Shown: positions 28,741 through 63,500 of the stretch, one piece after another
How the letters are laid out: the number at the start of each line of letters is the position of its first letter
How positions within the stretch are numbered: the first letter of the stretch is position 1
NCBI GenBank assembly: GCA_965235115.1
Contig: OZ249436.1
Coordinates: 62,001-126,000, forward strand
Length of the DNA stretch: 64,000 nucleotides
Reading direction: 5' to 3'
Source of the DNA: Laetmonice hystrix
Taxonomy: Eukaryota
Program-made: the position numbers and the translations under genes
The notes under the pieces: generated by a model
The model's database searches: none
Told to the model about the DNA's origin: nothing
Seen by the model: only the letters and a program-made list of their open reading frames with translations

Positions 28741-29114
28741 TCCGTGTTAGGCGGTGGCGGTAGAGTTCGGACGTTGTTTCTTCACTCGGTCTCAGAGGGA
28801 CCCTCCGCAAGGTTTTCCATGTTTCGGTAATTTAGAAGACAGTAACCGATACAGGAGTACCCTGGGAATGATCTACTGGAGGCTGTATAATGGACGAATG
28901 TGCTGTACAGGAGTTCTGTAAGAATTTTTCTCTCTATCCTGGGATATCGTTACAGCCATGTTGGGCATTCCATACCTGGCTGTCACACAGGCAGTACTCA
29001 CCGAACCATACTGCACTTGTATGACCCAAACATAGAACAGTGGAAAGGACTACGTGTACTGAAAACGCACTTTCTATCCCCAACTGAATCCTGAGAAACT
29101 TTATATTGAAAATT

Positions 29115-30356
29115 ATGCCTAGAGGAAAACAACTGCCTTCCTCTCCTACCCAATGTATGGAGGCCACTTCCAAAGATACTGCCCTCATTCTGGAGAAACT
29201 GAATCAACTTAGTGAACTACCTAAACTAATGGAAAGTTTCAAAGACGAAGTCAGACAAGATATTAAAGATATCAAAGAGTCATTGGATTTTTCTCACCAA
29301 GAGATAGACGAATGGAAGTATAAATGTAAGGAAAACGCAGCAGAGATCACGCTCCTAAGAGAGGAGCTAAAAAAAGAAAGGACCCTCAATAAAAAGCTGA
29401 GTAATGACTTGATTGCGCTTAATAGGAAAGTGAACAACCAGGAAGATTATTCACGTAAACATAATCCTCTCTTTGATGGGATTAAAAAAGAGACTGGTGA
29501 GAACTGCAAGGAAATAATTTTGAACCTTGTACGCGATAAGTTACAACTGACCACGGACCTGAAAATTGACCTAGCTCATCGTACGGGTAAGCCTTTCCAG
29601 GGAAAGAACAGGTCAATCATGGCCAAATTCTGCTTCTTGGAACACAGGCAGCTGGTGTGGACCAACAGGACCAAACTAAAGGGAACTAGGCTCTTTATGA
29701 GTGAAGATCATTGCGAGGAAACAAAGAGAAACAAATCTAAACTACTTCCCATTCTTAAAGCCGCCTGGAAGCACCACCATAAGGCGACATTTGTGAAGGA
29801 CGAACTCATAATTGACGGAGTACGATATACCTTAAATTCTTTGCACAAACTACCTCAACACCTGGATCCGGTTAAAGTATCCACACCTGCAGTCAACGAG
29901 AATACTTTAGCGTTTTACAGCCAACTGTCGCCACTATCCAACTTTTATCCTTCGCGATTTATTATAAACGGGAAGGAGTACTCATCATCCGAACAGTATT
30001 TCCAACATTCAAAAGCTCTTGCGTGCGAACAGGACGAAATTGCAGCTGGCATCATGAGTGCCACTGAGCCGGTGATTATCAAAAGGTATGGTGACCAAAT
30101 CAAGGTCAACAACAACTGGAACAGACGTAAACTTTCTGAAATGAAAATCGGCTGTGCAGCAAAGTTTGAACAGAATGCATCCCTTAAGGAATTTCTTATA
30201 AATACTGGAAACAAGAACCTGGTACACGCAGGCATGGCCAGATTCTGGGGCGCTGGTGTTCCACTAGGGAGTCCTAATCTGGTGGACAATAGCTGGCCTG
30301 GTCAGAACAAACTTGGTGATGTTCTTGTATCGCTGCGCGAAACTCTGCAAGGTTAG
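29115..30356 (+). CDS. LINE ORF1p: coiled coil plus L1-type RRM/CTD, fused to a C-terminal NADAR (YbiA/DUF1768-like) domain
   Basis: Open frame; first ATG at 29115. It has a heptad-rich N-terminus, then QEDYSRKHNPLFDGI, AHRTG, RSIMAKF and LFMSED (L1-like ORF1). The C-terminal ~150 aa carry FYSQLSPLSNFY, SSEQYFQHSKA, AKFEQN, FWG and GQNKLGDVLVSLRE (NADAR motifs). Confidence 0.9.
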   Translation: MPRGKQLPSSPTQCMEATSKDTALILEKLNQLSELPKLMESFKDEVRQDIKDIKESLDFSHQEIDEWKYKCKENAAEITLLREELKKERTLNKKLSNDLIALNRKVNNQEDYSRKHNPLFDGIKKETGENCKEIILNLVRDKLQLTTDLKIDLAHRTGKPFQGKNRSIMAKFCFLEHRQLVWTNRTKLKGTRLFMSEDHCEETKRNKSKLLPILKAAWKHHHKATFVKDELIIDGVRYTLNSLHKLPQHLDPVKVSTPAVNENTLAFYSQLSPLSNFYPSRFIINGKEYSSSEQYFQHSKALACEQDEIAAGIMSATEPVIIKRYGDQIKVNNNWNRRKLSEMKIGCAAKFEQNASLKEFLINTGNKNLVHAGMARFWGAGVPLGSPNLVDNSWPGQNKLGDVLVSLRETLQG

Positions 30357-30527
30357 TTTTGTTGGTGAATGTTTATTATGTCCCTTTATGTAGATCTTTG
30401 CATATTAGGATTCCGATGTTACCTAACCTTAAAACTATAACAGTTACCAAGTGTTGTCATAAGGATATTTATTATTGTTGCTTAACTGTATTCTTTATTG
30501 ATACTCATATTCTTGCCAATATTTGAA

Positions 30528-30741
30528 ATGGTATCTGTAAACAACAATTGTCCAAATTGTCAACTCTTGAACTGTTATGTTGACCACTGCCATGTTGTTC
30601 TCCCGTTCATGAATGTGGAAACCGACCTTGAACTCGTTGAGAGATTCCCCACGACCACACTCTGAATGTTTTCGATCTTTATAGTGAAGACAATAATCAC
30701 CATGACCTTATAAAATGGAATGACCCCGATAAAAACTTTTA
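30528..30741 (+). pseudogene. N-terminal fragment of LINE ORF2, separated from the rest by the 30742-38863 insertion; probable frameshift near 30640-30660
   Basis: ATG at 30528 reads MVSVNNNCPNC...LPFMNVETDLEL. A shifted frame from 30662 reads LNVFDLY...WNDPDKNF and joins in frame to YSDLSPTSSNYY at 38864 once the insertion is removed. Confidence 0.75.
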
Positions 30742-31735
30742 TGCAGTCAAACTCGGAGAACGGGAATGCTTTGCTGTAGGTTACATTTTATTCACATACA
30801 TAGTAACCCGTTGATCACCCCATGCAATGGGGGACTCTACAAACATTATAATATGGTAAATCTATATAAGGTGTAACTGATATATGTAACAACATAACAA
30901 TACTATAGTAATATAATACATAACCGATAATACATTATATGGAAATACATAGTCCAAAATACATAGATATAGGTATAGTTATGCCTTATTAGGTGGAGAC
31001 AATGCCCACAACATCCAGGAACCCAAATACATCCCTATCCAACCAAACTGAGAAAAGAACTCGGGCAGCCATGCTGACCCCAAGCCAAACCCAGTAGGTC
31101 TACATAAAAACATAATTTAAACCAGGCAAAGGCGTTGAAACATGGAGGAGTCGGGGCGGAGGTGGGCCGTCTGATTTCCACGAAGCTTCCAAAGGTAGAG
31201 AACTCGACTCTTCTGCTCGGTTGTATTTATACCCTCCGGATCGTCTCCCAAGTCGCCTTCGTCATTTCCGACCCAGACCGCGCGAGAGGCGAGAACCAAG
31301 ATGGTGGTTAACGGGAGTACAGCTATTGTTTACATTACCTCGACAATACATACTGAGCACACGACATGGGTCCTAGATTATGTGCGAGTACCTATACTAA
31401 TATACCTACGCAAACCCCTCGTTTCTCCTCCATAAATGATCCCGGCTCTTTGGCGCCGAGCTCGGATTTATGCAGTCAAACTCGGAGAACGGGAATGCTT
31501 TGCTGTAGGTTACATTTTATTCACATACATAGTAACCCGTTGATCACCCCATGCAATGGGGGACTCTACAAACATTATAATATGGTAAATCTATATAAGG
31601 TGTAACTGATATATGTAACAACATAACAATACTATAGTAATATAATACATAACCGATAATACATTATATGGAAATACATAGTCCAAAATACATAGATATA
31701 GGTATAGTTATGCCTTATTAGGTGGAGACAATGCC
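30742..31735. repeat. 265-bp direct repeat B (30742-31006 and 31471-31735) flanking one copy of the 302-bp repeat A (31169-31470)
   Basis: tgcagtcaaactcgg...gagacaatgcc occurs twice and looks identical by eye. Confidence 0.95.
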
Positions 31736-32497
31736 ACTAAGCGGAATCGAAGATGAAGCTGGAGCCACCAAAGAAGGCAGGAGAAAAGACTCCTAACGCG
31801 ACCCGCTGACACCGCCCCAGGAGCCAAATCTACGCATCACCGTCAGACACAACTTGGAAATTAGGCACAGATCATCTCCTGGCCTAAACGAACGGATAGC
31901 GGAACCCATCATCATCCAGTCCGATTAGGGGCATCTGGTGTACCTGCAACAAGCATATCAAGGCTTTGAATCATAAGACATACGGAAGAAGACCTTAGAT
32001 CCTTGGAGTCAACATCATAACGTCAGGTTAACAAGTTATAACACCCAGCTGCTTGACCAAACAGGAAGCACCCACCATTAAACTCCATTACACCATACTT
32101 ACTTATCCTGGGAAATTGTGATAGACTGAGAAACTGGTGGAAAAACGTGACGGTATCCCATTCTACCACCTGGGACCATACTATAAATATTTAATAATAA
32201 ATAACCGAACCGGGCAACAATCCAAACTTCCTCGTCACTGAACCGTGCGACAAAGCTACCTCGTCACTGCACCGGACAACATTCCAATTAAAGCTTACTT
32301 CATCCACCTCCTTCAACGCGTCGTCTATCTAGCCGCCCCCGAGCACTTACCTACCACTTTGTACGGTACCAAACTAGTACCCACCAGACAGCTACAGAGC
32401 CCAACACTTAATGATACACGGATCGTAACGTAAGCATAAGGTAACGTAAAAAGGGAAGACTACTGGAATAACAAATACTGGAGGTGAAGGACGCGCA

Positions 32498-33510
32498 AAC
32501 GTAGCAGGAACCATGAAAGTCGTAGTCAAAAACCGTGGAATCGGTTCACGCTTGGGAGTCCAACATACATCCAACATCGGATCTCTTGGGCCCGGGAGGT
32601 TTCCCAAAACTTAAAAAGATAACTGATCTCCGTATATACACATACACATAATAACCACATAACCACATCACATACACATAATAACCACAGGATCACATGA
32701 ACAAGTTAAATGCCTTGATATCCGAGACCAACCACAAACATGGGTTAAGCCTATACGCGGCAAGTATTCCACATACCTACAAGAAATACATTCCATAGAG
32801 ATGGTAACTAAAGGAACCACTAAACCAAAACAACCTCTGAACCATACCGAACCTTGAATAATATAATTCGACAGCCCTTCGAACAACATCACAGGTTCAA
32901 AACACGGGGAATTGACTTACCCACATCAGTAAACCTCCAAAGTCAACCGAAGACACATACTCAGCCAAACGTATCAGGAACCATGAAAGTCGTAGTCAAA
33001 AACCGTGGAAACGCTTCACGCTTGGGAGTCCAACATACATCCACATCGGACCTCTCGGGCCCGGGAGGTTTCCCAAAACTTAAAAAGATAACTGATCTCC
33101 GTATATACACACACATAATAACCACATAACCACATCACATACACATAATAACCACAGAATCATATGAACAAGTTAAAGGCCTTGATATCCGAGACCAACC
33201 ACAAACATGGGTTAAGCCTATACACATAATAACCACATGAACAAGTTAAAGGCCTTGATATCCGAGACCAACCACAAACATGGGTTAAGCCTCTACGCGG
33301 CAAGTATTCCACATACCTACAAGAAACACATTCCATAGAGATGGTAGCTAAAGGAACCTCTAAACCAAAACAACCTCTGAACCATACCGAACCTTGAATA
33401 ATATAAATCAACACTCAGCCTTCGAACAACATCCCAGGTTCAAAACACGGGGAATTGACCTTACCCACATCAGTAAACCTCCAAAGTCTACCAAAGACAC
33501 ATACTCAGCC
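32498..33510. repeat. Tandem duplication of ~470 bp, with a further short duplication in the second copy
   Basis: aacgta(g/t)caggaaccatgaaagtcgtagtc begins at ~32498 and ~32968; both copies end in ...agacacatactcagcc. Confidence 0.9.
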
Positions 33511-34395
33511 TTCCATCAGCTCTTATCAGTACAAATGAATGTGTAAATATAGAATACGTCCCACGACCCATGCACCAAAGCCATATGCTCAGCCTGTCGT
33601 CCACCTAAAATGGAAAATAACAAAAGACCGAAGAAACATCTGGCAGAGGAATAATAGTTACTGCCCTATGACAAATACAATCAACTCAATATCAAAAAAT
33701 TGCATAAATTCCGCTTATACATTATGACAAATCAAATTAATCATCCAAAAATACGATAATACTTATTACCTTTATAGTTAACATTGAAATTATATAGTTA
33801 GACGAAATTACGATAAATATATAATATAATTATAGCCCTCAACACAAAGTAAAAACTAAATAGGCAACATTTAACTAAGGTGACAACCCTGACTAACATT
33901 GTTAATAATTCTATCTAAGATACCTAATATTACCAAATTAACAAAATAGTACATTGAAAATTTGACAAGATAATTTACAAAGTTAATGAACAAGATATTT
34001 AAGTGCAGACGGTCCCACCATAGCCCGAAGGCGAGGCAGATCCAAAAAGCGTAAACACATAGTACACACTAAAATACAGTAGAAGTGACCTGACTTACTA
34101 ACACAACCTACCGACCTAAAATGACTTCTTAAACAACTTTAAAACAAGAAAATAAAGATTCAGCCCTAATCCTCGAAAAAGGCAGAGCGGAGGGGACATC
34201 CCCTCGCATCCATATACATAGGTACCCATCGATCACCCATCATGGGGACTAGAAGTACAATGCACCAAAGGATGTGGCAGCCTGCGGAAACCAGGCACAT
34301 CTGCCGTAAAACAACTTGTAATATAACGGGGATGACGGAACCGAAGGGACCACACCGTCGACCCCAAGGTAATCCTATCAAGGGAGGACAGAACC

Positions 34396-35053
34396 CCACG
34401 GAACACGACACCACCCCCCAACCAAGTTAACACAACCACAAGGGAAGGCGGAACCGAAGGGACCACACACCGTCAACCCCACGGAACACGGCCCCATCCC
34501 CCAACCAAGTTAACACAACCACAAGGGAAGGCGGAACCGAAGGGACCACACACCGTCAACCCCACGGAACACGGCCCCATCCCCCAACCAAGTTAACACA
34601 ACCACAAGGGAAAGCGGAACCGAAGGGACCACACACCGTCAACCCCACGGAACACGGCCCCATCCCCCAACCAAGTTAACACAACCACAAGGGAAAGCGG
34701 AACCGAAGGGACCACACACCGTCAACCCCACGGAACACGGCCCCATCCCCCAACCAAGTTAACACAACCACAAGGGAAGGCGGAACCGAAGGGACCACAC
34801 ACCGTCAACCCCACGGAACACGGCCCCATCCCCCAACCAAGTTAACACAACCACAAGGGAAAGCGGAACCGAAGGGACCACACACCGTCAACCCCACGGA
34901 ACACGGCCCCATCCCCCAACCAAGTTAACACAACCACAAGGGAAAGCGGAACCGAAGGGACCACACACCGTCAACCCCACGGAACACGGCCCCATCCCCC
35001 AACCAAGTTAACACAACCACAAGGGAAAGCGGAACCGAAGGGACCACACACCG
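34396..35053. repeat. 83-bp minisatellite, ~8 copies
   Basis: cggaaccgaagggaccacacaccg recurs at 34449, 34532, 34615 and onward. Confidence 0.95.
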
Positions 35054-35443
35054 TATGTTACACCACATTAAGCCCACATCAGCAGAGCCCCGTTATTCGT
35101 AAACACAACACCCCCCCCCCCCACACCCCCCTCCTCCAACACACACACACACACCTCACTAACACGAGGAAGGGTGGGGTGGGGTGGGTCTACAAACTAT
35201 TGGCAAAATACTTAAACGACAAAACCTTTCAGATGAGGTGGTAGCTAAATCTACACGCCTATTAATCAGGGGCAATTAGATTAAATGATGTAAATCCTGA
35301 AACAGAGGGACAGGTAGTCTGCCTAGTAAGGTTCAGGGGACAACTAAACTCAAAAATACAAAATCAAATACTTACAAATGGATAGACTCAAAACAAAGCA
35401 ACCACAAGGAGTGAATACCAAACTACTACATAGAAAACTAGTT

Positions 35444-37378
35444 ACAAGGTGCCATGGGCACAGGAATCCCATTCACCAGGTGAAAGGGATAAATAAAGGT
35501 GCATAATGAAAGACCATATAACTTCCTATTAGTGTTTAATAATAACTATGGCTCTATCTTGAACCATTTACTAGTTATAGCTGTTGGAAAATATAGGTTA
35601 CCTCCTTATGACATCATGACCCTCTGAAAATATCGATGACGTCACTGTGACGTCATGGGTCACGTGACCAAAAAGATAATGGTGCATAATGAAAGAGCAT
35701 ATATGACTTCGTATTACTGTTTAATAGTAACTATGACTCTATCTTCAACCATTTAGAAGTTATAACCCTTAGAAAATCTAGGTGACCTGATGACGTCATA
35801 GGTCACGTGACCTGAAATATAAAGATGCATAATGAAAGAGCATAGCTTCCTATTGGTGTTTAATAGTAACTATGACTGTATCTTCAACCATTTAGAAGTT
35901 ATAACCATGAGAAAATCTAGATGACCTCTTTATGACGTCATAGGTCACGTGACCTGAAAACTAAAAGTTCATAATGAAAGAGTATATGACTTCCTACTTC
36001 CTATTAGTGTTTAATAGATCTATGCCTCTATCTTCAACCATTTGGAAGTTATAGCCCTGGGAAAATATAGGTGACCTCCTTATGACGTCATAGGTCATGT
36101 GACCTAAAAAATAAAGGTTCATAATGAAAGACCATGACTTCCTATTAGTGTTTAATAGTAACTATGGCTCTAGCCTGAACCATTTCCTAGTTATAGCTGT
36201 TGGAAAATATAGGTCACCTCCTTATGACGTCATGACCCTCTGAAAATATCGATGACGTCATTGTGACGTCATGGGTCACGTGACCGAAAAATAATGGTGC
36301 CAAACGGAAGAGCATATATGACTTCCTATTAAAGTTCTATAGTAATTTAGGCTCTATCTTCTATAGTTTCTGACTTACGGCCCTCTAAAAATATCGATGA
36401 CGGCACTGTGACGTCACGGGTCACGTGACTGAAAAAATAATGGTGCCAAATGGAAGAGCATATATGACTTCCTATTCGAATTCTACAGTAACTTAGGCTC
36501 TATCTTCTATAGTTTCCGACTTATGGCCCTTTAAAAATATCATTGACGTCACTGTGACGTCATAGGTCACGTGACCGAAAAAATAATTGTGCAAAACGGT
36601 AGAGCATATATGACTTCCTATTCAAGTTCTATAGTAACTTAAGCTCTATCTTCTATAGTTTCTGACTTATGACCCTCTGAAAATATCGATGACGTCACTG
36701 TGACGTCATGGATCACGTGACCAAAGAAATAATGGTGCTAAACGGAAGAGCATATATGATTTCCTATACATGTTCTATAGTAACTTTAGCTATATCTTCT
36801 ATGGTTTCAGAGTTATACCACTTTATTGCATTATGACCTAATATTTAGATGTTTGAGGTCACGTGACTCAGTAAATATATGGAAAATCGAAAAAATCAAT
36901 GCATTTTTATAAGTGGGCCGCCACTGGGCATCCTTGGTAAAAGTTTCATCCCAATCGGACAAAAATTGAGTGAGGAGTAGGGATTTAAGTGATTTCTTTA
37001 TTTTGACCTAGTTCTTATATAGTTCAAAGGTCAAAGGTCAAACTGCCCTCCATAATTTTGCTAACCCCTTTTCCAATAATGCTGATGGCAATAGATTTTC
37101 AAAAAGTCTAATTTACTATGAAATACAGGCCTATATATCATGACGTATTTTACGTCATTTCGTCATGATGTTACGTCATACGACGTCATGGGTCACGTGG
37201 CCAACTCATCTTCTCAGGGGGAATCTAAGTGCCAAGTTTCATTGAGATATCTTGAAAAATAATACCAATTAGGGTACAAAGTTAACTACAGGAATAATAA
37301 TAATGAAAAAAAAAAAAAAGGAAGACGAAACCATACAATTTCAAAATCCCATTCACCTAGAAGGTGAATGGGATAATA
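35444..37378 (-). mobile_element. Helentron-associated non-autonomous element (HINE/DINE-1-like) carrying an internal ~146-bp tandem array
   Basis: One end has ACAAG, the imperfect hairpin GTGCCATGGGCAC and the subTIR ATCCCATTCACC. The other end has an A-rich simple repeat and the hairpin ATCCCATTCACC-TAGAA-GGTGAATGGGAT. About 9 units (gaaagagcatatgacttcctatt...) lie between. Confidence 0.75.
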
Positions 37379-38561
37379 ACATTGACGAAATCCCCCTACC
37401 ATGCGACTGCATCAATGAACCACACTGAACAGTGAGAGGCACCTGTCCAGTTCCCGATATAATATCAGGGATAAGCCACTCGTTGGCTACAAGAGAAAGA
37501 AAATGATCAGCGACACTAAATTAGAGTCCAACAAGTCAGGTAAAATTACATTCATCAAACCATCTCCAAAGCTTATCAGGTTAAAGCTGGTGCCAATACA
37601 TCCAGATTAATCTGTCCACCGTAAATAAATACTTCTACCCGAATAACAGCACCACATACCGCTCGAATACCAGCGCAGCATACCCACATCCAAAAAGCAC
37701 CCCAAGCAAACGGCAAGAAGCATTGCCGCCAAGCGATAAACACTGTATTTAACATAATCTAGGGAGGGCACTTCGAAAACCATACCAACTGTTGCAATTA
37801 GGAGCAGCAGTAAACGCCTATATAAGACGGGACTAGATAAATTAAAGAACACCCGGCGTGTCAAGTTACAGCAGTTCACTGGTCAAGTCCCAAACCACCG
37901 AAGGACACAACATAACTTCTACCAACCTTCAACCCCACATAGTGAGGACTAGCGAAAAACACCAACTCCACGACAATGTAGGCCTACCTCACACTTTTAC
38001 GAGCCTACCCCCACCATGATACACCACGTGGCAGGACAAACCGTTGTAGGCCTATAAGCTCAACCTTGGTACCGAACGCTATTACCCTACTCAACACGGA
38101 GTAAACCACGGTAAAACAAAACTGAAATTATCGTACCCCCACTACCATTCTGGGACAAATACGTACACAAAATTACACAACATAGCACCGCCGACGTCGT
38201 CAGTCGCCCTCAATGTGTGGTGAACTAAAATAACTACAAACTCATAACACAAATTGTCTACCAGGAGCTTCAAGTAGGCTAGCCGAGCCCGAACCACAAA
38301 GGTCAGGTCGACCACGTGGAAGCGACTGTGCGTGCTGCAACACTGCATGTGACTATTTCAGACACACATAAATACTGGATACCGGTCTATAATACAGCCT
38401 CGAAAGACGAATAACTGGAACTGTTTTAGACATAACACCTGCATATAGGTGTCAAACACAAGGCAAATATAAGAAACAGTCGACAAACCACGTTCCACCG
38501 TATACTTGAAACGAAGTCCCAACCATAGAACGAACTCACCCGATGTGTGGGGAACGAATCA

Positions 38562-38863
38562 GTCTGATTTCCACGAAGCTTCCAAAGGTAGAGAACTCGA
38601 CTCTTCTGCTCGGTTGTATTTATACCCTCCGGACCGTCTCCCAAGTCGCCTTCGTCATTTCCGACCCAGACCGCGCGAGAGGCGAGAACCAAGATGGTGG
38701 TTAACGGGAGTACAGCTATTGTTTACATTACCTCGACAATACATACTGAGCACACGACATGGGTCCTAGATTATGTGCGAGTACCTATACTAATATACCT
38801 ACGCAAACCCCTCGTTTCTCCTCCATAAATGATCCCGGCTCTTTGGCGCCGAGCTCGGATTTA
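38562..38863. repeat. Second copy of the 302-bp repeat A
   Basis: gtctgatttccacgaagc...gagctcggattta matches 31169-31470; I saw one mismatch (ggatcg vs ggaccg). Confidence 0.95.
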
Positions 38864-41792
38864 CTCTGATCTCAGCCCAACTTCTTCCAACTATTATACT
38901 GTTCAAAGTGCCAAAGATGTTTTTGTTCAAAATTCAGACAGTTTATCATTAATATCTTTAAACATAAGAAGCTTACAAAAGAATGCAGACAAGTTATATA
39001 AAATGCTCGATGATTTTGAATCTCAGATTGATATTGTCTGCTTATGTGAAACATGGACTACCGCGTCCAACTGTGATTTATACAACATATCGGTTTACCG
39101 CAGTGTTCATGTATATAGAGCTAAAAGAAGAGGAGGAGGCGTTGCCATATTTGTCAAAGCAGCGATCACATTCACAAAACTTGACCAATACTCCATGCTG
39201 AATGACGATATAGAATGCACCTTCATACAAATCGATAAGAACATTGTCAAGTCTAATAAACATCTCATTATGGGATCCATATATCGTCCACCTTCAGGCA
39301 ACCCAAACAAATTTATTGATTATATAATCGAAATTATATCCTCGTATGACCAGGATAACTACACAATTATCATTGCTGGAGATTATAATCTTGATCTCTT
39401 CAAGCACAAAAGCAGTGATTTAATTAAGCATTTTTTGGACAGTATGATTAGCTCAAACTGCACACCCTGTATTAACAAGGCCACCCGTATAAGTGAGAAT
39501 ACGAAAAGCCTAATTGATAATATTTTTGTAAATGACTTTCAACTTCACAATATCTGTGGCATTATACTCACTGATATATCTGATCACTTCCCAATATTCA
39601 GCATAATGACACTAAGCAGTAAAACTCGGAGTTATAGTCGAATTAAAAGGTTGTTTAACACTGAAAATATCAACTTGTTTATTGAAAAGATAACAGCAGA
39701 AAACTGGGACAATATTTATGAGACTGAGTCAGTACAGTTATCGTACTCCAGACTCCAGGAGAAAATCTGTGATGCTTTCGATACCTCTTTCCCAGTAAGG
39801 ACTGTAAGTAATCGCTATAAAGACAGGCTGCCTTGGATCTCTCAAGACTTAAAGGCAATTATTCGTCAAAAATATTTAGCTTATCTTAAATCTATTGATA
39901 ATCCGACTCTGCATAATGTAATAACGTATAAAAGGTTGAGAAATATGGTTAATTACAAATTAAGAAGAGAAAAAAGAAATTACTCCCTACATAAACTACG
40001 ATCCGCCAAAAATAATCCTAGACTATACTGGAAAAATATAAACGAAATCATTCTTAACAAAACACAAGACGATAACTTTCCTGATACTTTTATCAATACA
40101 GCAGATGGAACTGATATAGTAGATGATGTAGACATTGCAAATAAATTCAATGATTTTTTTGTCAATATTGATCCCCACCTTGAAAAAGATATTCCAAGCC
40201 CTCGTGCAAATATACTTGACACAATGGGTCCTAGAAATGATTATTCTATCTACCTACAACCAACTGATATCGCAGAAGTCACAAGCATTTTCCACCTATT
40301 GAAAAATGCTAGTGGTGGATGGGATGAATTAAATAAGCATATCTTACAATATATAATTCATCTAATTATAGAACCACTGACTTATATAGTGAATTTATGT
40401 TTAACCACAGGTGAATTTCCAAATGACCTTAAAATAGCCATTGTTAAACCATTATTCAAAGCTAACAACAAGAAACATTTTACAAATTATAGACCCATAT
40501 CGTTACTTCCAACAATATCAAATATTTTCGAAAAGGTTATTGCTACTCGGGTTATGAAATTCCTGACTACTCACAATATTCTGTATCCTCATCAATACGG
40601 TTTCAGGCCAAATCATTCCACGGAGCAAGTAGTAATTTCGTTGATAGACAAACTCAGTAAAGCAATCTCCAATAATGAGCATACCGTTGTTGTTTTCCTC
40701 GATTTTTCCAAAGCTTTTGATACTGTTAACTTTGAAATACTTTTGCTCAAACTAGAACACTACGGTATTAGAGGAACCCCACTAACTTTACTAAAAAATT
40801 ACCTATGTAACCGTACACAACAAGTCAAATACAAACAAGTACTTTCGCACCTTTTGAAAACGACGATGGGTGTTCCCCAGGGATCCATAATTGGCCCGCT
40901 TATGTTTCTAATTTATATTAATGATTTACCTAATGTAATAAACAATTCATCAACATTTCTTTTTGCGGATGACACCACCCCTCTCTTTAGTCACCGCTGC
41001 AAACAACATATAGAGTTAACTAACAATGAACTTTCTAAAATGTACACTTGACTCTGCATAAATAAACTTACATTAAACATCAATAAATCAAAATATATGT
41101 TATTTTCTAAAACTCTCTCTGATGTTGATATCTGCATAAACAATACCATGCTTGAATGTGTGAAATCAATCAAATTTCTAGGATATTATCTCGATAATAA
41201 ACTGTCATGGAAAGCTCATATAGAATATATAAGAAAAAAAGTAGCAAAATCATTAGGCATTATAAATAAAATGCGTCCCCTTCTAACCCAAGAAATTTTA
41301 GTAGATATGTATTATACGTTTGTTCACTGTTATCTAAATTCGGGCATAATTATTTGGGGATCGACACATTTAAATAAAATTGACTCGCTCATTAAGCTTC
41401 AAAAGAAAGCTATTCGTCTAATCACAAATTCCGGATATCGAGATCACACTTTACCTATATTCAACAAACTTAATATCTTACCTCTCCAACAACTTTATAA
41501 TATAAATATTATTCTCTTTATGTTTAAAGTCTATAGAGATAAATTACCAACGGTTATAATAAATCACTTTACACAACGCAATAGTCTAACCTTAAGAACT
41601 ACGCGGCAATCAAACCTCTTTGAGATTCCCAATTATATCAACGACACCTATGAAAGATCAATTTTTGTCAGAGGCCCGAAATACTTTAATAGTTTCTATA
41701 GGCAAACGTTTATTGATCTTTCTCTTTCAGTGCCGACATTTAAACGTGCCCTAAAAGTTGGTATTCTTAGAAATGAATTTCCATTCCCTTAG
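38864..41792 (+). pseudogene. LINE ORF2 body: AP endonuclease plus reverse transcriptase, with one in-frame stop at 41049-41051
   Basis: APE motifs: LNIRSL, LCETW, GGGVAIFV, IYRPP, GDYNLD, IDNIF, SDHFPI. RT motifs: NYRPISLL, QYGFR, FLDFSKAFDTV, GVPQGS, LFADDT. ORFs 38829-41051 and 41097-41792 share a frame, and KMYT*LCINKL suggests TGG>TGA. Confidence 0.95.
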
Positions 41793-45704: not shown

Positions 45705-47087
45705 CACTTTGCTGGGCACAAGCGACCGTCCTCTCGTTCCATTTGGACGTGGTGGACTTGAGTCCTGCTCGATTAGCTTCCATTTTTAAACAAGCGGTCA
45801 ACGTGTCATGCCGTCTATGATCCACTGAGGTGGCCCCGTTGAAAACACTGCAGGGGGTAGATCTATCTGTGTGGGCGTGAGTTTTTTTCCTATTTTCTTG
45901 TTTCTGTAATACTAAATTCGGAATTATTTCGACAATTACGTTCTCTCGGCACTGAACCGCGTCGCTTTGTTTGTACATCTCCAGCTCAGTCGTTCATAGG
46001 GGGCGCTGTATTTTGAGGTCACAAAAAGTGGCCTAATTGCGTATCCCCCCATTCTTGCTGAAGACAAGAATAAAACAAGAATAGTAGAATCCATTCTACT
46101 ATTCTTGCTGAAAGTCGTATGTGGGACCCTTTCCGTTGTCCTTAATGGTGCCCTTCTGTTTATTTTTAAATGTTTTTTTTTCAACACAAGTACATAAAAT
46201 CATTATTCTGCACCAGTACATAAAATTATAATTCCATGATAATATGTCGCATAAGAGCTCACTTCGAGAGAAAATAACGAGAAAATCGAGGTGACAACCG
46301 AGAGGTGCTGTCTATAGCACCGCGATGATAGGTAGGCGTCGCTGTGGCCGAAAAGGTAACAGCGCTGGACGGTGATGCCGCCGTGCATGGTTCGAATCCT
46401 CCCGACGGCAAACACCATAAAGTGGCGATATGCGTATGGCCATGGGGGCCAGAATATCCCACGTGTATACCATTAAATGTGTACTCATCGTACTGCCGAG
46501 CACTGTAGGTCGACTGTATGTGGGAACGAGTGGTTTATATACCTCAGTGTTCTCGTCCTTAATGTTTATTCGTTTTATTTATTAACAAGAACTGTCAGGG
46601 TTAGCTCTACGTATAATGTATATAATGTATAAAATCTATTTTACTTCATCGAGAGCACTCAACCAGAGCCAAAGGTTACATGACCGATATTGTGTAACCG
46701 GTTTACTGAGAAGCCTAGATAGATTTAGAGTAGATTAGATTTTATTGGAACAAAAACTGGACTGGAACAAAAACAATTCACAGGGCAAGGTGATTATTAC
46801 CAGACATGATTTCAATCGATAATTGGCATCAAAAAGTATAAATGACCGCCTCATGTAGACCAAGGGTAATAACATACATTACATTCTGTTCAATTATTTA
46901 GTTATATAGCGTGAATATATCATGGCTATAATTATGGCCATGATTGAACATGTATATATCCATACACTCTTTCTTCATCGGTGATTCTGGACAACATTCC
47001 ACTGTTCTGGTCCTCCGGCAAGTGACGTTGCCATCTCCATATATGTACATGTACATGTATGTATATTTCCTATACACTCAGGCGCCT

Positions 47088-50061
47088 AAGAAGCTGTTGT
47101 TGGATGGGGGGGGGGGCTGAGAGTTGCTGGTCTGTGGTAAGAAGCTGTTGTTGGTTGGTTGGGGGGGGGGGGACTGAGAGTTGCTGGTCTGTGGTAAGAA
47201 GCTGTTGTTGGTTGGTTGGGGGTGGGGGGACTGAGAGTTGCTGGTCTGTGGTAAGAAGCTGTTGTTGGTTGGGGGGGGGGGGCTGAGAGTTGCTGGTCTG
47301 TGGTAAGAAGCTGTTGTTGGTTGGTTGGGGGGGGGGGGGACTGAGAGTTGCTGGTCTGTGGTAAGAAGCTGTTGTTGGTTGGTTGGGGGGGGGCTGAGAG
47401 TTGCTGGTCTGTGGTAAGAAGCTGTTGTTGTTGGTTGGGGGGGGGGGGGGGCTGAGAGTTGCTGGTCCGTGGTAAGAAGCTATTGTTGGTTGGGGGGGGG
47501 GGGCTGGGAGTTGCTGGTCTGTGGTGAGAAGCTGTTGTTGGTTGGGGGGGGGGGGCTGAGAGTTGCTGGTCTGTGGTGAGAAGCTGTTGTTGGTTGGGGG
47601 GTGGGCTGAGAGTTGCTGGTCTGTGGTGAGAAGCTGTTGTTGGTTGGTTGGGGGGGACTGAGATTTGCTGGTCTGTGGTAAGAAGCTGTTGTTGGTTGGT
47701 TGGGGGGGGGGACTGAGAGTTGCTGGTCTGTGGTAAGAAGCTGTTGTTGGTTGGTTGGGGGGGGGGGGGGTGCTGAGAGTTGCTGGTCTGTGGTAAGAAG
47801 CTGTTGTTGTTGGTTGGGGGGGGGGGGCTGAGAGTTGCTGGTCTGTGGTAAGAAGCTATTGTTGGTTGGGGGGGGCTGGGAGTTGCTGGTCTGTGGTAAG
47901 AAGCTATTGTTGGTTGGGGGGGGCTGGGAGTTGCTGGTCTGTGGTAAGAAGCTATTGTTGGTTGGGGGGGGCTGAGAGTTGCTGGTCTGTGGTAAGAAGC
48001 TGTTGTTGGTTGGGGGGGGGCTGAGAGTTGCTGGTCTGTGGTAAGAAGCTGTTGTTGGTTGGTTGGGGGGGGGGGCTGAGAGTTGCTGGTCTGTGGTAAG
48101 AAGCTGTTGTTGGTTGGTTGGGGGGGGGGCTAAGAGTTACTGGTCTGTGGTAAGAAGCTGTTGTTGGTTGGTTGGGGGGGCTGAGAGTTGTTGGTCTGTG
48201 GTAAGAAGCTGTTGTTGTTGGTTGGGGGGGGGGGCTGAGAGTTGCTGGTCTGTGGTAAGAAGCTGTTGTTGGTTGGGGGGGGGGACTGAGAGTTGCTGGT
48301 CTGTGGTAAGAAGCTGTTGTTGGTTGGGGGGGACTGAGAGTTGCTGGTCTGTGGTAAGAAGCTGTTGTTGGTTGGGGGGGGGGGGCTGGGAGTTGCTGGT
48401 CTGTGGTAAGAAGCTGTTGTTGGTTGGGGGGGGGGGCTGAAAGTGGCTGGTCTGTGGTAAGAAGCTGTAGTTGGTAGGGGGGCTGAGAGTTGCTGGCCTG
48501 TGGTGAGAAGCTGTTGTTGGTTGGGGGGGGCTGAAAGTTGCTGGTCTGTGGTAAGAAGCTGTTGTTGGTTGGGGGGGGGGGCTGAGAGTTGCTGGTCTGT
48601 GGTAAGAAGCTGTTGTTGGTTGGTTGGGGGGGGGGCTGGGAGTTGCTGGTCTGTGGTAAGAAGCTGTTGTTGGTTGGTTAGGGGGGGGGGACTGAGAGTT
48701 GCTGGTCTGTGGTAAGAAGCTGCTGTTGTTGGTTGGGGGGGGGGCTGAAAGTGGCTGGTCTGTGGTAAGAAGCTGTAGTTGGTAGGGGGGCTGAGAGTTG
48801 CTGGCCTGTGGTGAGAAGCTGTTGTTGGTTGGGGGGGGGGGGCTGAAAGTTGCTGGTCTGTGGTAAGAAGCTGTTGTTGGTTGGGGGGGGGGGCTGAGAG
48901 TTGCTGGTCTGTGGTAAGAAGCTGTTGTTGGTTGGGGGAGGCTAAGAGTTGCTGGTCTGTGGTAAGAAGCTGTTGTTGGTTGGGGGGGGGCTGAGAGTTG
49001 CTGGTCTGTGGTAAGAAGCTGTTGTTGGTTGGGGGGCTGAGAGTTGCTGGTCTGTGGTAAGAAGCTGTTGTTGGTTGGGGGGGGGGGGCTGAGAGTTGCT
49101 GGTGCTGGTCTGTGGTAAGAAGCTGTTGTTGTTGGTTGGTTGGGGGGGGGGGACTGAGAGTTGCTGGTCTGTGGTAAGAAGCTGTTGTTGGTTGGGGGGG
49201 CTGAGAGTTGCTGGTCTGTGGTAAGAAGCTATTGTTGGTTGGGGGGCTGAGAGTTGCTGGTCTGTGGTAAGAAGCTGTTGTTGTTGGTTGGGGGGGGGAC
49301 TGAGAGTTGCTGGTCTGTGGTAAGAAGCTGTTGTTGGTTGGGGGGGGGCTGAGAGTTGCTGGTCTGTGGTAAGAAGCTGTTGTTGTTGGTTGGGGGGGGG
49401 ACTGAGAGTTGCTGGTCTGTGGTAAGAAGCTGTTGTTGGTTGGTTGGGGGGGGGGCTGAGAGTTGCTGGTCTGTGGTAAGAAGCTGTTGTTGGTTGGGGG
49501 GGGGGCTGAGAGTTGCTGGTCTGTGGTAAGAAGCTGTTGTTGGTTGGGGGGGGGGGCTGAGAGTTGCTGGTCTGTGGTAAGAAGCTGTTGTTGGTTGGGG
49601 GGGCTGAGAGTTGCTGGTCTGTGGTAAGAAGCTGTTGTTGGTTGGTTGGGGGGGGGGCTGAGAGTTGCTGGTCTGTGGTAAGAAGCTGTTGTTGGTTGGG
49701 GGGGGGACTGAGAGTTGCTGGTCTGTGGTAAGAACCTGTTGTTGGTTGGTTGGGGGGGGGGGCTGAGAGTTGCTGGTCTGTGGTAAGAAGCTGTTGTTGG
49801 TTGGGGGGGGCTGAGAGTTGCTGGTCTGTGGTAAGAAGCTGTTGTTGGTTGGTTGGGGGGCTGAAAGTGGCTGGTCTGTGGTAAGAAGCTGTTGTTGGTT
49901 GGGGGGGACTGAGAGTTGCTGGTCTGTGGTAAGAAGCTGTTGTTGTTTGGTTGGGGGGGGGGCTGAGAGTTGCTGGTCTGTGGTAAGAAGCTGTTGTTGG
50001 TTGGGGGGGGGGGGGCTGAAAGTGGCTGGTCTGTGGAAAGAAGCTGTTGTTGGTTGGGGGG
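47088..50061. repeat. Minisatellite of ~42-52 bp with a variable poly-G run
   Basis: Unit ctgagagttgctggtctgtggtaagaagctgttgttggtt(g)n. Confidence 0.97.
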
Positions 50062-50599: not shown

Positions 50600-51640
50600 G
50601 CATATTCGTGTTGAATAGTATTCATGTTCAATAGCCATGGCTCATCGTGCACCGTTTACGAGTAATATAGGCCTTATGAAATATTGATGATGTCATTATG
50701 ACGTCATACATCACGCTATGTCGCGAATCTTGGTGTCATTTGAAAGAGGATCTATGACTTCTTATTCATGTTCAATAGAAACCATGGCTTTATCTCCCAC
50801 CATTTACGAGTTACGTATTATTGGTATAGTGATGACGTCATTATGACATCGTCTGTCACGCGACGTCATGAATATTGGGGTCAATTGAAAGAGCATGTAT
50901 GACTTCCTATTGACGATCAATAGTAAATATGGCCCTATCCCTATCCCCGTTTTCGAGTTATAGGTCAAAGAAAATACTAATGACGTCATTAGGACGTCAT
51001 ACGTCACGCTACCTAATAAATGTTTGTGTCAATTGAAAGAGCATAATTTATGACTTCCTATTCATGTTCAATAGTAACCATGGCTTTATCTCCCACCGTT
51101 TAGGAGTTATAGGCCTTAGAAAATATTGATGGCGTCATTATGACGTCATACGTCACGGTACGTCATCAAACTTGGCGTCAGTTGAAAGAGCAGGCATGAC
51201 TTCCTATTCGTGCTAAATAGTAACTATGGCACCGTTTCTTAGTTATAAACTCTATATTGACCACTGTTCAAAATAGGTCACGTGAATATAGGTCACATCA
51301 ATTGTAGCAGGGCCGATTCCTTTGAAGCTCTCGTTTTATGGAAAATTAGGGAAGAAGTAGGGATTTAAGCATTTTCTGACCTTTGACCCAGCTTTCAGAC
51401 ATGTCAAAGGTCAAAGGTCAAATATTTGCAAAATATATTAATTAGGTCCTTGCCCAATTCTGACAGAGTCAACTGTTCTTCAAAGGTATATCCATAGTTA
51501 CCTTGAAAAGCATCACAATAGCCAGAATACGAATGACGTCATGCCGTTACGTCATATGACGCCATGACTCATTGTCGGATCACATTTCGTGACTATCAAT
51601 ATGTCCACTAAGTTTGAGTTAGATATCTTGAAAAGCGATA
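50600..51640 (-). mobile_element. Diverged relative of the 35444-37378 element; ends not resolved
   Basis: ~147-bp units (gaaagagcat...tgacttcctattcatgttcaatagtaac) followed by agtagggatttaag, tcaaaggtcaaaggtcaaa and agatatcttgaaa, in the same order as at 36970-37260. Confidence 0.7.
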
Positions 51641-57760: not shown

Positions 57761-58250
57761 TTCTTCAAACGTTCCCCTTCATACCAGAAATTTATATTTG
57801 CACATAAAACACCGAAGGAGCAGGTGTCAATAATGCACTACTTCCTGGCTCGATGGGATATGACGGTTCACTCAGTGCCTCGCTACACACCTCCATTTGG
57901 CCATGTATCTGGTTGCCAAACATGGCCAATAATCCACCCGAGGGTATATTCGAATAGTAGGAAGTGACGTCATATATGCCCGAGGGAATCCCGAATGGGG
58001 AGAAACATGGATTTTTTTGCTTTTTTCGAAAGTTATGGATTTCCATTATTTAATGGAAAACTTGCAACCCTGGAACTTACTGAGCGATAATAGGATACAC
58101 CTTCCTTCATATATTTAGATTCAATAAAAAGAGGAAGACAGAGATTCTTTGGACACTGGCATTGACACTCTAGGCCTAATAATTGAAATGTAAATTAAAG
58201 ATCCTCTTTAATCGCAACAAAAATAACCTACTTGTCACTTGGAACTGCTT

Positions 58251-58755
58251 ACCCGGCGTAGACTTACAGGAGGGCCTAGATCTACTACCCGGCGTAGACT
58301 TACAGGAGGGCCTAGATCTACTACCCGGCGTAGACTTACAGGAGGGCCTAGATCTACTACCCGGCGTAGACTTACAGGAGGGCCTAGATCTACTACCCGG
58401 CGTAGACTTACAGGAGGGCCTAGATCTACTACCCGGCGTAGACTTACAGGAGGGCCTAGATCTACTACCCGGCGTAGACTTACAGGAGGGCCTAGATCTA
58501 CTACCCGGCGTAGACTTACAGGAGGGCCTAGATCTACTACCCGGCGTAGACTTACAGGAGGGCCTAGATCTACTACCCGGCGTAGACTTACAGGAGGGCC
58601 TAGATCTACTACCCGGCGTAGACTTACAGGAGGGCCTAGATCTACTACCCGGCGTAGACTTACAGGAGGGCCTAGATCTACTACCCGGCGTAGACTTACA
58701 GGAGGGCCTAGATCTACTACCCGGCGTAGACTTACAGGAGGGCCTAGATCTACTA
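58251..58755. repeat. Perfect 36-bp tandem repeat, ~14 copies
   Basis: Unit acccggcgtagacttacaggagggcctagatctact, no spacers. Confidence 0.97.
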
Positions 58756-59185
58756 TCCGTGTGCTACGTTGAAATCTCGCAATATCACGTTATTTCTCGT
58801 CTTGCGACATCTCGTCCCGTCGTGATACCAAGTCTTGACGCGCCAGCAGAGTTTGGCGCGAGAAAAAGTTATAACAGATGGTTGGAAATATCGATACATC
58901 CCGCGAGACTGCATCTACTCATGCAAACTTCCACCAATTTATATTGATTATACTGTACAAATAATAAACAGCAAAAAGCCGGTTAATTTCTTTATTAAAG
59001 TAATTTCTTTCCAGACTGAAATGTGACATAGATAAAAGAACGAGAAGCCTCGCCCTTATATAACAGTCATGTAGCCTACGTATTATTGCATCTGATACAG
59101 AAAATCAAGGTCAAATTTCTGATCAGGGAAGTAGAACTTTCAACACCCACGAGTCAGAAAACATGTCATCCAAAGGTGCTGACTA

Positions 59186-60559: not shown

Positions 60560-63500
60560 ACCAACTGTTGGGAAACTATTGATAGTTGGGGGGGGGGGGG
60601 TCAAGGTCGGGAACCTATTAATAGATGGGGGGGAAGGTCGGGACGCTATTGATAATTGGGAGGGGGGGGGGGTCAAGGTCGGGAACCTATTAATAGATGG
60701 GGGGAAGGTCGGGACGCTATTGATAGATGGGGGGGGGGGCAAGGTCTGGAAGCTATTGATAGATGGGGGGGGGACAAGGTCTGGAAGCTATTGATAGATG
60801 GGGGGGGGCAAGGTCTGGAAGCTATTGATAGATGGGGGGGGGCAAGGTCTGGAAGCCATTGATAGATGGGGGAGGGGGCAAGGTCTGGAAGCTATTGATA
60901 GATGGGGGGGCAAGGTCTGGAAGCTATTGATAGATGGGGGGGGGCAAGGTCTGGAAGCTATTGATAGATGGGGGGGCAAGGTCTGGAAGCTATTGATAGA
61001 TGGGGGGGCAAGGTCGGGAAGCTATTGATAGATGGGGGGGGGGCAAGGTCTGGAAGCTATTGATAGATGGGGGGGGCAAGGTCTGGAAGCTATTGATAGA
61101 TGGGGGGGGCAAGGTCTGGAAGCTATTGATAGATGGGGGGGCAAGGTCTGGAAGCTATTGATAGATGGGGGGGGGGGCAAGGTCTGGAAGCTATTGATAG
61201 ATGGGGGGGGCAAGGTCTGGAAGCTATTGATAGATGGGGGGGGGGCAAGGTCTGGAAGCTATTGATAGATGGGGAGGGGGGCAAGGTCTGGAAGCTATTG
61301 ATAGATGGGGGGGGGGGCAAGGTCTGGAAGCCATTGATAGATGGGGGGGGCAAGGTCTGGAAGCTATTGATAGATGGGGGGGGGCAAGGTCTGGAAGCCA
61401 TTGATAGATGGGGGGGGCAAGGTCGGGAGGCTATTGATAGATTGGGGGGGGGCAAGGTCTGGAAGCTATTGATAGATGGGGGGGGGGGTAAGGTCTGGAA
61501 GCTATTGATAGATGGGGGGGGCAAGGTCTGGAAGCTATTGATAGATGGGGGGGGGCAAGGTCTGGAAGCTATTGATAGATGGGGGGGGGGCAAGGTCTGG
61601 AAGCTATTGATAGATGGGGGGGCAAGGTCTGGAAGCTATTGATAGATGGGGGGGGGGCAAGGTCTGGAAGCTATTGATAGATGGGGGGGGCAAGGTCTGG
61701 AAGCTATTGATAGATGGGGGGCAAGGTCTGGAAGCTATTGATAGATGGGGGGGCAAGGTCTGGAAGCTATTGATAGATGGGGGGCGGGGGGAGACAAGGT
61801 CTGGAAGCTATTGATAGATGGGGGGCGGGGGGAGACAAGGTCTGGAAGCTATTGATAGATGGGGGGGGGGTAAGGTCGGGAAGCTATTGATAGATGGGGG
61901 GGGGGGCAAGGTCTGGAAGCTATTGATAGATGGGGGGGCAAGGTCTGGAAGCTATTGATAGATGGGGGGGGGCAAGGTCTGGAAGCCATTGATAGATAGG
62001 GGGGGGCATGGTCGGGAAGCTATTGATAGATGGGGGGGCAAGGTCTGGAAGCTATTGATAGATGGGGGGCAAGGTCTGGAAGCCATTGATAGATGGGGGG
62101 GGCAAGGTCTGGAAGCCATTGATAGATGGGGGGGGGCAAGGTCTGGAAGCTATTGATAGATGGGGGGGGGGGGCAAGGTCTGGAAGCCATTGATAGATGG
62201 GGGGGGGGCAAGGTCTGAAAGCTATTGATAGATGGGGGGGGGCAAGGTCTGGAAGCTATTGATAGATGGGGGGGCAAGGTCGGGAAGCTATTGATAGATG
62301 GGGGGGGCAAGGTCTGGAAGCTATTGATAGATGGGGGGGGGCAAGGTCGGGAAGCTATTGATAGATGGGGGGGGCAAGGTCTGGAAGCTATTGATAGATG
62401 GGGGGGGGGGGGCAAGGTCTGGAAGCTATTGATAGATGGGGGGGGGGGGGGCAAGGTCTGGAAACTATTGATAGATGGGGGGGGCAAGGTCTGGAAGCTA
62501 TTGATAGATGGGGGGCGGGGGGAGACAAGGTCTGGAAGCTATTGATAGATGGGGGGCGGGGGGAGACAAGGTCTGGAAGCTATTGATAGATGGGGGGGGG
62601 GGGTAAGGTCGGGAAGCTATTGATAGATGGGGGGGGGCAAGGTCTGGAAGCTATTGATAGATGGGGGGGGGCAAGGTCTGGAAGCCATTGATAGATGGGG
62701 GGGCAAGGTCTGGAAGCTATTGATAGATGGGGGGGGGGCAAGGTCTGGAAGCCATTGATAGATAGGGGGGGCATGGTCGGGAAGCTATTGATAGATGGGG
62801 GGGGCAAGGTCTGGAAGCCATTGATAGATGGGGGGGGCAAGGTCTTGAAGCCATTGATAGATGGGGGGGGGCAAGGTCTGGAAGCTATTGATAGATGGGG
62901 GGGGGCAAGGTCTGGAAGCTATTGATAGATGGGGGGGGGGGCAAGGTCTGGAAGCCATTGATAGATGGGGGGGCAAGGTCTGGAAGCTATTGATAGATGG
63001 GGGGGGGCAAGGTCTGGAAGCCATTGATAGATAGGGGGGGCATGGTCGGGAAGCTATTGATAGATGGGGGGGGGCAAGGTCTGGAAGCCATTGATAGATG
63101 GGGGGGGGGCAAGGTCTGGAAGCCATTGATAGATGGGGGGGGGGCAAGGTCTGGAAGCTATTGATAGATGGGGGGGCAAGGTCTGGAAGCTATTGATAGA
63201 TGGGGGGGGGGTAAGGTCGGAGAGCCATTGATAGATGGGGAGGGGGGCAAGGTCTGGAAGCTATTGATAGATGGGGGGGGGGGGGGCAAGGTCGGGAAGC
63301 TATTGATAGATTGGGGGGGGCAAGGTCTGGAAGCTATTGATAGATGGGGGGGGGGGCAAGGTCTGGAAGCTATTGATAGATGGGGGGGCAAGGTCTGGAA
63401 GCTATTGATAGATGGGGGGGGGGCAAGGTCTGGAAGCTATTGATAGATGGGGGGGCAAGGTCTGGAAGCTATTGATAGATGGGGGGGGCAAGGTCTGGAA

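Follow-up and report, generated by a model that had tools for sequence, protein, structure and literature searches.

A large non-coding element with split direct repeats in Laetmonice hystrix, probably a non-autonomous tyrosine-recombinase retroelement

Ngaro, PAT and VIPER retrotransposons are described as being defined by a split arrangement of direct repeats around their open reading frames (ORFs), A1-[ORFs]-B1A2B2 (PMC8547959; PMC4157794; PMC6681497). Few non-autonomous derivatives of tyrosine-recombinase retrotransposons have been documented, and TOC1 and SIRE are the textbook cases. TOC1 of Chlamydomonas reinhardtii was reportedly found by Day et al. in 1988 to be 5.7 kb long and to have a split long terminal repeat (LTR) layout. 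It has been referred to as ‘the active nonautonomous DIRS retrotransposon’ (PMC9940879). SIRE is described as a short non-autonomous derivative of the Trypanosoma cruzi element VIPER that consists of A2 and B2 (PMC6681497). Here, we analysed a window of 64 kb from contig OZ249436.1 of Laetmonice hystrix and found that positions 30738-38862 probably represent a copy of a DIRS-order (tyrosine-recombinase) retroelement that is non-autonomous and has split direct repeats. The element shares its architecture with Ngaro, PAT-like and VIPER elements; it belongs to a known kind and is not a new kind.

In architecture, the L. hystrix element resembles TOC1: both belong to the DIRS order, are large (several kb), non-coding and recently active, carry split terminal repeats and use enzymes that come from elsewhere. 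TOC1 has a known autonomous relative, TOC3, whereas none was found for the L. hystrix element. The host also differs, as the L. hystrix genome carries long interspersed nuclear elements (LINEs) with a NADAR domain in ORF1, a combination reported for Tx1 LINEs of the oyster Crassostrea gigas (PMC12477816). VIPER shares the A1..B1A2B2 repeats and is described as an element in which, as in the present one, A2 and B2 are separated by a short unique stretch (PMC6681497), and SIRE corresponds to the ~740-bp solo A-spacer-B units that accompany the full copies here. However, the spacer is ~30 bp in SIRE and 162 bp in the present element, which is non-coding even in its full-length form. Ngaro elements of Cafeteria burkhardae, zebrafish and sea urchin are described with the same A1-[interior]-B1A2B2 order and a length of ~6 kb, and ‘isolated AB repeats’ are mentioned for those of Cafeteria (PMC8547959). 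In contrast to these, the present element is without ORFs; it shares only a junction core (GGATTTATG) with an intact Ngaro on contig C4 of the same genome (the C4 Ngaro), and in the opposite orientation if its minus strand is the sense strand. DIRS1-like elements differ by inverted terminal repeats and an internal complementary region, whereas the repeats of the present element are direct. The literature on non-autonomous DIRS and Ngaro elements that was searched, with Repbase outside the search, describes no animal family of this kind, and we make no claim that the family is undescribed.

On the plus strand, the parts follow in the order B, spacer, A, B, interior, A, which on the minus strand reads A1 - interior - B1 A2 - spacer - B2. 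The two copies of repeat A are 301 nt long including a terminal TTT, plus one base that matches by chance, and have their sole mismatch at 31241; the two copies of repeat B are 269 nt long including TTT and have no mismatch. The inner A and the inner B overlap by one TTT, and the internal A|B junction is CTCGGA-TTT-ATGCAG with this TTT only. No inverted repeat pair was found between 29000 and 41000. The initial annotation, made from the letters of the window alone, had proposed an exact A...BAB layout on the minus strand with an A of 302 bp, a spacer of 162 bp and one mismatch between repeat copies, and our repeat comparison agrees with all of these. It was also right that a repeat B is present, though not on its length, which is 266-269 bp depending on how TTT is counted and not 265 bp.

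The element lacks coding capacity. The longest ORF initiated by ATG, GTG or TTG within it has 91 aa, and the longest stop-to-stop open frame has 132 aa. When 66 of its 70 open frames of at least 45 aa were scanned against Pfam (the four omitted are redundant frames of an 83-bp tandem array), none reached a curated cut-off, the best score being 17 bits against a cut-off of 26.6. A six-frame search of the genome for the tyrosine-recombinase domain PF00589 listed no match inside the element, and no Rfam family matched anywhere in the 64-kb window. As the ORF, Pfam and PF00589 searches found neither a reverse transcriptase (RT)/RNase H nor a tyrosine recombinase encoded by the element, it can only be a non-autonomous derivative and not an autonomous member, and its enzymes must come from elsewhere since it encodes no protein domain. 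The initial annotation had likewise seen no gag, RT/RNase H or recombinase ORF, and the interior tandem duplications that it reported are an 83-bp repeat in eight copies (34392-35054) and a duplication of ~470-540 bp (32496-33510). The large interior, which is conserved at 84-91% between subfamilies, might instead point to an autonomous element whose genes are hidden by introns, unusual coding or strong divergence. We regard this as very improbable, given the short frames, the 66 frames below the Pfam cut-off, the PF00589 search with no match listed inside, and an interior much of which is tandem duplication of variable copy number. Because the element has no genes, it cannot be assigned to Ngaro or to PAT, for which the described markers are a methyltransferase domain (present in PAT, absent in Ngaro) and a Gag zinc finger (PMC4157794).

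The genome assembly that we searched for further copies comprises 627 Mb in 35 contigs. A 567-bp A+B query returned 615 candidates, and all 40 that were scored matched at 91-100% identity over the full 567 bp. Both B copies were in register at each of the 30 loci cut around A+B, of which the window itself is one, and whole elements with identical first and last bases were present in six of six 10-kb loci (L031-L036). A 30-nt word at the end of A occurred 189 times in the genome (92 forward, 97 reverse) and the 31-nt internal junction 57 times, while the reversed controls of both gave 0 occurrences. Among the A ends, 100 of the 189 were listed individually; paired ends were spaced 4.76-4.85 kb apart in an older subfamily and 5.1-5.6 kb apart in copies of the window type, with few outliers. 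Two copies, 42 kb apart on contig C12 (L006, G000:C12:23340195, and L007, 23298057), have identical left flanks and therefore go back to one segmental duplication in which the element was included, rather than to two insertions. L031 and L032 were 99.75-99.87% identical to the window copy over 4.7 kb, and the older subfamilies were about 98%, 95% and 89-91% identical to it; subfamilies differ from each other by up to ~4-5% substitutions plus indels (88.7-93.6% BLAST identity).

Searching the genome with A and B had been suggested in the initial annotation, and copies with the same layout were thus found at 30 of 30 loci, with the junction occurring 57 times versus 0 for its control. The recent mobilisation that it had proposed is supported by the near-identical copies elsewhere (99.7-99.9% over 4.7 kb). 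Perfect identity between repeats could also arise from an assembly artefact or a local segmental duplication, a danger that the annotation had raised. This explanation is refuted: the structure recurs at dozens of independent loci with unrelated flanks on many contigs, which excludes chance and assembly error, and contigs of four sequencing runs reproduce parts of the element (these contigs come from one sample and are uninformative on strand, ends and circles).

The element lies within a LINE that has at least seven paralogs at 89-98% identity in the genome. Nine paralogous LINE loci were fetched, two of which stop short of the insertion site. All seven loci that span the insertion point show the empty site ...aaaaact TTT actctg..., with nothing else between the flanks, and the element was therefore inserted precisely at TTT with no other duplication. 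TTT is now present at both ends of the element, and the internal junction holds a single TTT. Contigs of the sequencing runs show the joint 30737>38860, which equals the empty LINE paralogs. The ATG at 38829 of the LINE ORF2 frame falls inside repeat A by chance. Each copy of the element starts with TTTATGCAG... and ends with ...CTCGGATTT wherever the right end was read, except in the truncated L035. At 30 sites with both flanks read (18 full copies and 12 solo units), A was present at -7 in 28 sites and at -6 in 26 sites, giving a target motif of AA-N5-TTT. This pattern corresponds to the signature known from the DIRS order. Ngaro and PAT elements generally follow the rule that one triplet is common to the ends, the internal junction and the genomic insertion site. 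The rule is documented for DIRS1-like elements, in which the terminal trinucleotide equals the junction trinucleotide and insertion occurs at the same genomic triplet (PMC3266345).

These sites also bear on the possibility that A+B is one LTR of a rearranged non-autonomous LTR retrotransposon, resembling a large retrotransposon derivative (LARD) or a terminal-repeat retrotransposon in miniature (TRIM). What suits such an element is that the terminal repeats are direct and a few hundred bp long, that the multi-kb interior is non-coding and that the repeat pairs are identical. However, every copy has the order partial-spacer-full-interior-partial and not LTR-interior-LTR. LTR termini are typically TG...CA, whereas the termini here are TTTATG...GGATTT. 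Instead of two complete direct LTRs with a variable target duplication of 4-6 bp, we found a constant TTT that is also the internal junction. A derivation of this type is thus highly unlikely, and A+B does not behave as the ordinary LTR with target duplications that the initial annotation had named as speaking against its own proposal.

The repeat pairs evolve in concert. In five of the seven complete copies, A1 equals A2 and B1 equals B2 without any difference; the window copy has one mismatch and L035 is truncated. B1 and B2 were exactly identical at 24 of 30 loci, the exceptions having 1-2 differences or, in L028 and L035, a deletion. Repeat B occurs in length variants of 269, 271, 272, 273, 274, 275 and 276 nt, and the variant is the same in both B's of one element. 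Compared with the window copy, L036 shows 11 substitutions in A and 13 in B, with 9 and 17 gap columns, respectively; its own A1 and A2 (309 nt) are identical, as are its own B1 and B2 (276 nt). Since A1 equals A2 and B1 equals B2 within copies even for copy-specific indels, the paired repeats are regenerated in each cycle. Identical pairs are unexpected under simple DNA cut-and-paste and expected if one member of a pair is copied from the other each cycle, and such copying would correspond to the role given to the internal junction in the DIRS model. For the internal complementary region of DIRS-1, which is reported to be essential, such a role has been demonstrated by experiment (PMC7192593).

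Unpaired repeats were also common. From the 100 listed A ends, we chose 14 with neither a partner nor a junction, and 13 of them proved to be free-standing B-spacer-A units of 679-774 bp (~740 bp) with the same TTT ends and target motif; the remaining one was an outer A with interior sequence upstream. At the search stringency used, the counts suggest ~57 junction-bearing elements versus ~75 solos. In a tree of the B-spacer-A segment, solos were interspersed with full copies in all subfamilies and formed no young clade of their own. The solos are consistent with recurrent recombination of A1 with A2, and in this they compare with solo LTRs, with the isolated AB repeats of Cafeteria Ngaros (PMC8547959) and with SIRE of VIPER (PMC6681497).

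The solo units can also be read in another way, in which the element is a DNA-only Crypton-like element or a co-integrate: a mini unit of B-spacer-A (~0.74 kb) and a maxi unit of B-interior-A (~5.45 kb), joined head to tail via one TTT, would travel as circular DNA driven by a tyrosine recombinase, and reverse transcription would play no part. Crossover at TTT without a target duplication suits any tyrosine-recombinase element, and Cryptons are described as being flanked by short direct repeats that reflect target microhomology (PMC13465315). Free mini units with the same ends and target motif are common, as the 13 of 14 unpaired A ends show, and no RT-encoding relative was found among 20 recombinase loci and the copies with odd A-to-A spacing. 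However, we consider this account unlikely, because repeats that evolve in concert (A1 with A2, B1 with B2) down to copy-specific indels are unexpected from DNA cut-and-paste, because the composite is unchanged at 57 junction-bearing loci, and because solos are mixed with full copies in every subfamily, as recombination products would be. Moreover, Cryptons have no long terminal repeats, whereas the element has, besides the TTT microhomology, split repeats of 269 and 301 nt; the account available attributes long split direct repeats to retro-type families and not to Cryptons (PMC13465315). The reading as a non-autonomous Ngaro/PAT-type retroelement, as the initial annotation had put it, is supported: all of its structural predictions that were open to testing held, namely the layout, the lack of coding, the junction TTT, the precise insertion, the concerted repeats and the presence of near-identical copies.

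For such a retroelement, we propose the following cycle. Transcription, probably of the minus strand, would run from near TATAAATA in A1 to past AATAAA in B2 and would yield an RNA that lacks the outer parts of A1 and B2. This RNA might be copied into complementary DNA (cDNA) by an RT supplied in trans from an autonomous Ngaro/PAT-like element; trans-mobilisation is plausible because the DIRS-1 RT is reported to act in trans (PMC7192593). The B1-A2 junction might then act as a template or bridge by which the lost ends are rebuilt and the end-to-end junction is set; the outcome, A1=A2 and B1=B2, is observed in the copies. A tyrosine recombinase, also presumed to act in trans, would catalyse a strand exchange that involves the TTT of the junction and a TTT in the genome with AA 6-7 bases upstream. 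The outcome of this step is likewise seen: a precise insertion, TTT ends, a single junction TTT and no duplication. The ~740-bp solo A-spacer-B units would arise later, when paired repeats recombine. The window copy was inserted into a NADAR-ORF1 LINE and then received a nested insertion of 1.9 kb.

The layout itself cannot reveal the sense strand because it is symmetric under strand reversal. The minus strand is favoured by a TATAAATA motif at 38624-38617 in A1 (minus strand), by an AATAAA at 30792-30787 near the end of B2, by its richness in G+T (A+C = 65% on the plus strand), which runs in the same direction as in the sense strand of the C4 Ngaro, and by the VIPER-like place of the short spacer between A2 and B2. 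The plus strand is favoured by the orientation in which the junction core GGATTTATG matches the C4 Ngaro and by TATATAAG at 30863-30870.

Possible sources of the enzymes are present in the genome, in which at least 94 matches to PF00589 were found (98 of 152 candidates scored). Five of the families at 20 representative recombinase loci have split repeats of their own. The C4 Ngaro (G000:C4:39772367-39777467, L085+L056), one of them, is an apparently intact Ngaro-type element of ~5.1 kb, with A1...B1A2B2 repeats that are 99-100% alike and ORFs for a gag-like protein of 515 aa (no Pfam match), an RT/RNase H of 744 aa (RVT_1, E 5.4e-10) and a recombinase of 356 aa; its junction occurs in at least four copies in the genome. 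The B1|A2 junction of the C4 Ngaro, GGATTTAT|GAACATG, shares the 9-mer GGATTTATG with the plus-strand junction of our element, and a junction-centred local alignment of the two elements had a score of 13, which was reached by 2 of 500 shuffles. With tblastx and blastn, nothing above chance was found between them beyond the junction core, and the crossover of the C4 Ngaro seems to be (T)TAT, not TTT. A gapped-motif search of the genome for diverged junctions returned only an old degenerate copy on C5 (L100) and four copies of the C4 Ngaro family. Copies with odd A-to-A spacing (6.06, 6.18, 7.0, 10.6 and 10.96 kb) contained extra internal duplications or nested insertions and no long open frame. 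The autonomous partner implied by the initial annotation was looked for in these loci and lists and was not found with the termini of the element, although the genome contains an intact Ngaro as well as the 94 or more recombinase matches.

A 1,442-aa recombinase ORF at another locus (L047, G000:C1:56912000-56920999) was considered as a partner and proved to be unrelated to the element. The sole Pfam match of this frame is a C-terminal tyrosine-recombinase domain; direct repeats of ~500 bp flank it 7 kb apart, and internal inverted repeats are present. Several copies of this type carry frames of 1,411-1,451 aa.

Several points weigh against a retroelement mobilised in trans. Indications of the sense strand point both ways. 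We infer the RNA and the circular intermediates, and the RNA/cDNA step counts as a weakness of the proposal. The full-length identity of A1 and A2 exceeds what a simple end-repair model strictly requires. No blastn similarity to the element was found within 1.2 kb downstream of the 20 PF00589 loci taken as representatives, and when the 100 listed A ends were compared with the 94 recombinase matches, none lay within 10 kb. Interiors were read in 12 full-length or partial copies (the window copy, L031-36, L068-69 and L082-84), and all of these copies were non-coding; family copies with RT, RNase H and recombinase ORFs, for which the initial annotation had proposed to look, were absent among them. 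An autonomous partner with the termini of the element, which we infer, was not found in the loci and lists searched.

A tentative possibility, which we hold with low confidence, is that the family has persisted through at least three subfamilies (~89-100% identity) without a cognate autonomous element sharing its termini. It might have been cross-mobilised by a heterologous Ngaro that reads little beyond the junction core of ~9 bp (GGATTTATG), or the mini (0.74 kb) and maxi (5.45 kb) units might be independent recombinase substrates that travel as a co-integrate. If either were true, the recombinase site would be far smaller, and DIRS-order trans-mobilisation far more promiscuous, than assumed. 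To the few documented derivatives, the family adds an empty-site proof of the 3-bp crossover rule, an AA-N5-TTT target, direct evidence for re-homogenisation of the paired repeats in each cycle, and abundant solos. As a natural substrate, it lends itself to studying which features the recombinase and RT of the DIRS order recognise.

The coordinates of the element and its surroundings are given in Table 1. The window copy carries a nested insertion, since the segment concerned is missing in all six other complete copies compared. The canonical element measures ~6,188 bp (~6.19 kb), and the window copy reaches 8.1 kb only because of this insertion; the 8.1 kb of the initial annotation hence holds for the copy and not for the family. 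The empty site in L031 and L032 reads ...catagaaa|ataacatt..., and a contig of the sequencing runs joins 35435 to 37375, which corresponds to the element without the insertion.

Table 1. Positions of the element, its host LINE and the nested insertion in the window; minus for parts of the element applies if the minus strand is sense
Feature	Position	Strand	Remarks
Host LINE, left part	29106-30737	+	ORF1 29106-30356 with NADAR domain (PF08719, E 3.3e-31); paralogs continuous across the site
Outer B (B2 if minus strand is sense)	30738-31006	-	Plus-strand start is the terminal TTT, 30738-30740; boundary at the identical base in 30/30 loci
AATAAA, candidate polyadenylation signal if minus strand is sense (motif only)	30787-30792	-	49 nt short of the element's end
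Unique spacer (162 bp) separating A2 from B2	31007-31168	-	Repeats end exactly at its borders; kept in full copies and found in solo B-spacer-A units
Inner A (A2)	31169-31469	-	Plus-strand end is the junction TTT, 31467-31469, common to inner B
Inner B (B1)	31467-31735	-	Makes the internal junction ...CTCGGA TTT ATGCAG... with inner A
Interior part 1, non-coding	31736-35437	-	Holds the ~470-540-bp duplication and the 83-bp array
Nested insertion of another non-coding repeat, foreign to the family	35438-37374		1,937 bp; absent from L031-L036
Interior part 2, non-coding	37375-38561	-	Aligned to other copies; open frames scanned
Outer A (A1 if minus strand is sense)	38562-38862	-	Plus-strand end is the terminal TTT, 38860-38862
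Host LINE, right part	38863-41792	+	ORF2 with endonuclease (PF03372, E 1.9e-13) and RT (PF00078, E 6e-27)

The nested insertion has near-identical hairpins (ATCCCATTCACC...GGTGAATGGGAT) near both ends, which form subterminal inverted repeats, and is located at an A|A step, which is T|T on the opposite strand. It carries 146/292-bp tandem repeats with TGACGTCA palindromes. These features recall, as we presume, non-autonomous Helentron-type rolling-circle elements. The 8-kb ‘non-coding’ block is thus a nested stack of three mobile elements, namely a LINE, a split-repeat element and a hairpin-ended repeat, which is relevant to genome annotation. A second array, at 50619-51230 of the window, consists of 145/297-bp tandem repeats with GATGACGTCAT-type motifs like those of the nested insertion, and is probably another copy of the same repeat family.

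The remainder of the window is rich in tandem repeats. Its first ~28 kb (entered as 1-~31000) are a tandem satellite with units of ~835-870 bp (e.g. copies at 45-344 and 907-1206), with 97-100% similarity among at least 36 copies and a higher-order pattern of alternating variant units. Two G-rich minisatellites, both with extreme GC skew, occupy 47087-50061 (48 bp x 57) and 60593-64000 (34 bp x 99), the second running past the end of the window. In addition, a 254-aa open frame at 58183-58947 is made of 36-bp repeats (14 copies, 99% alike) and matches the Pfam LED repeat (PF20854, E 3.7e-17).

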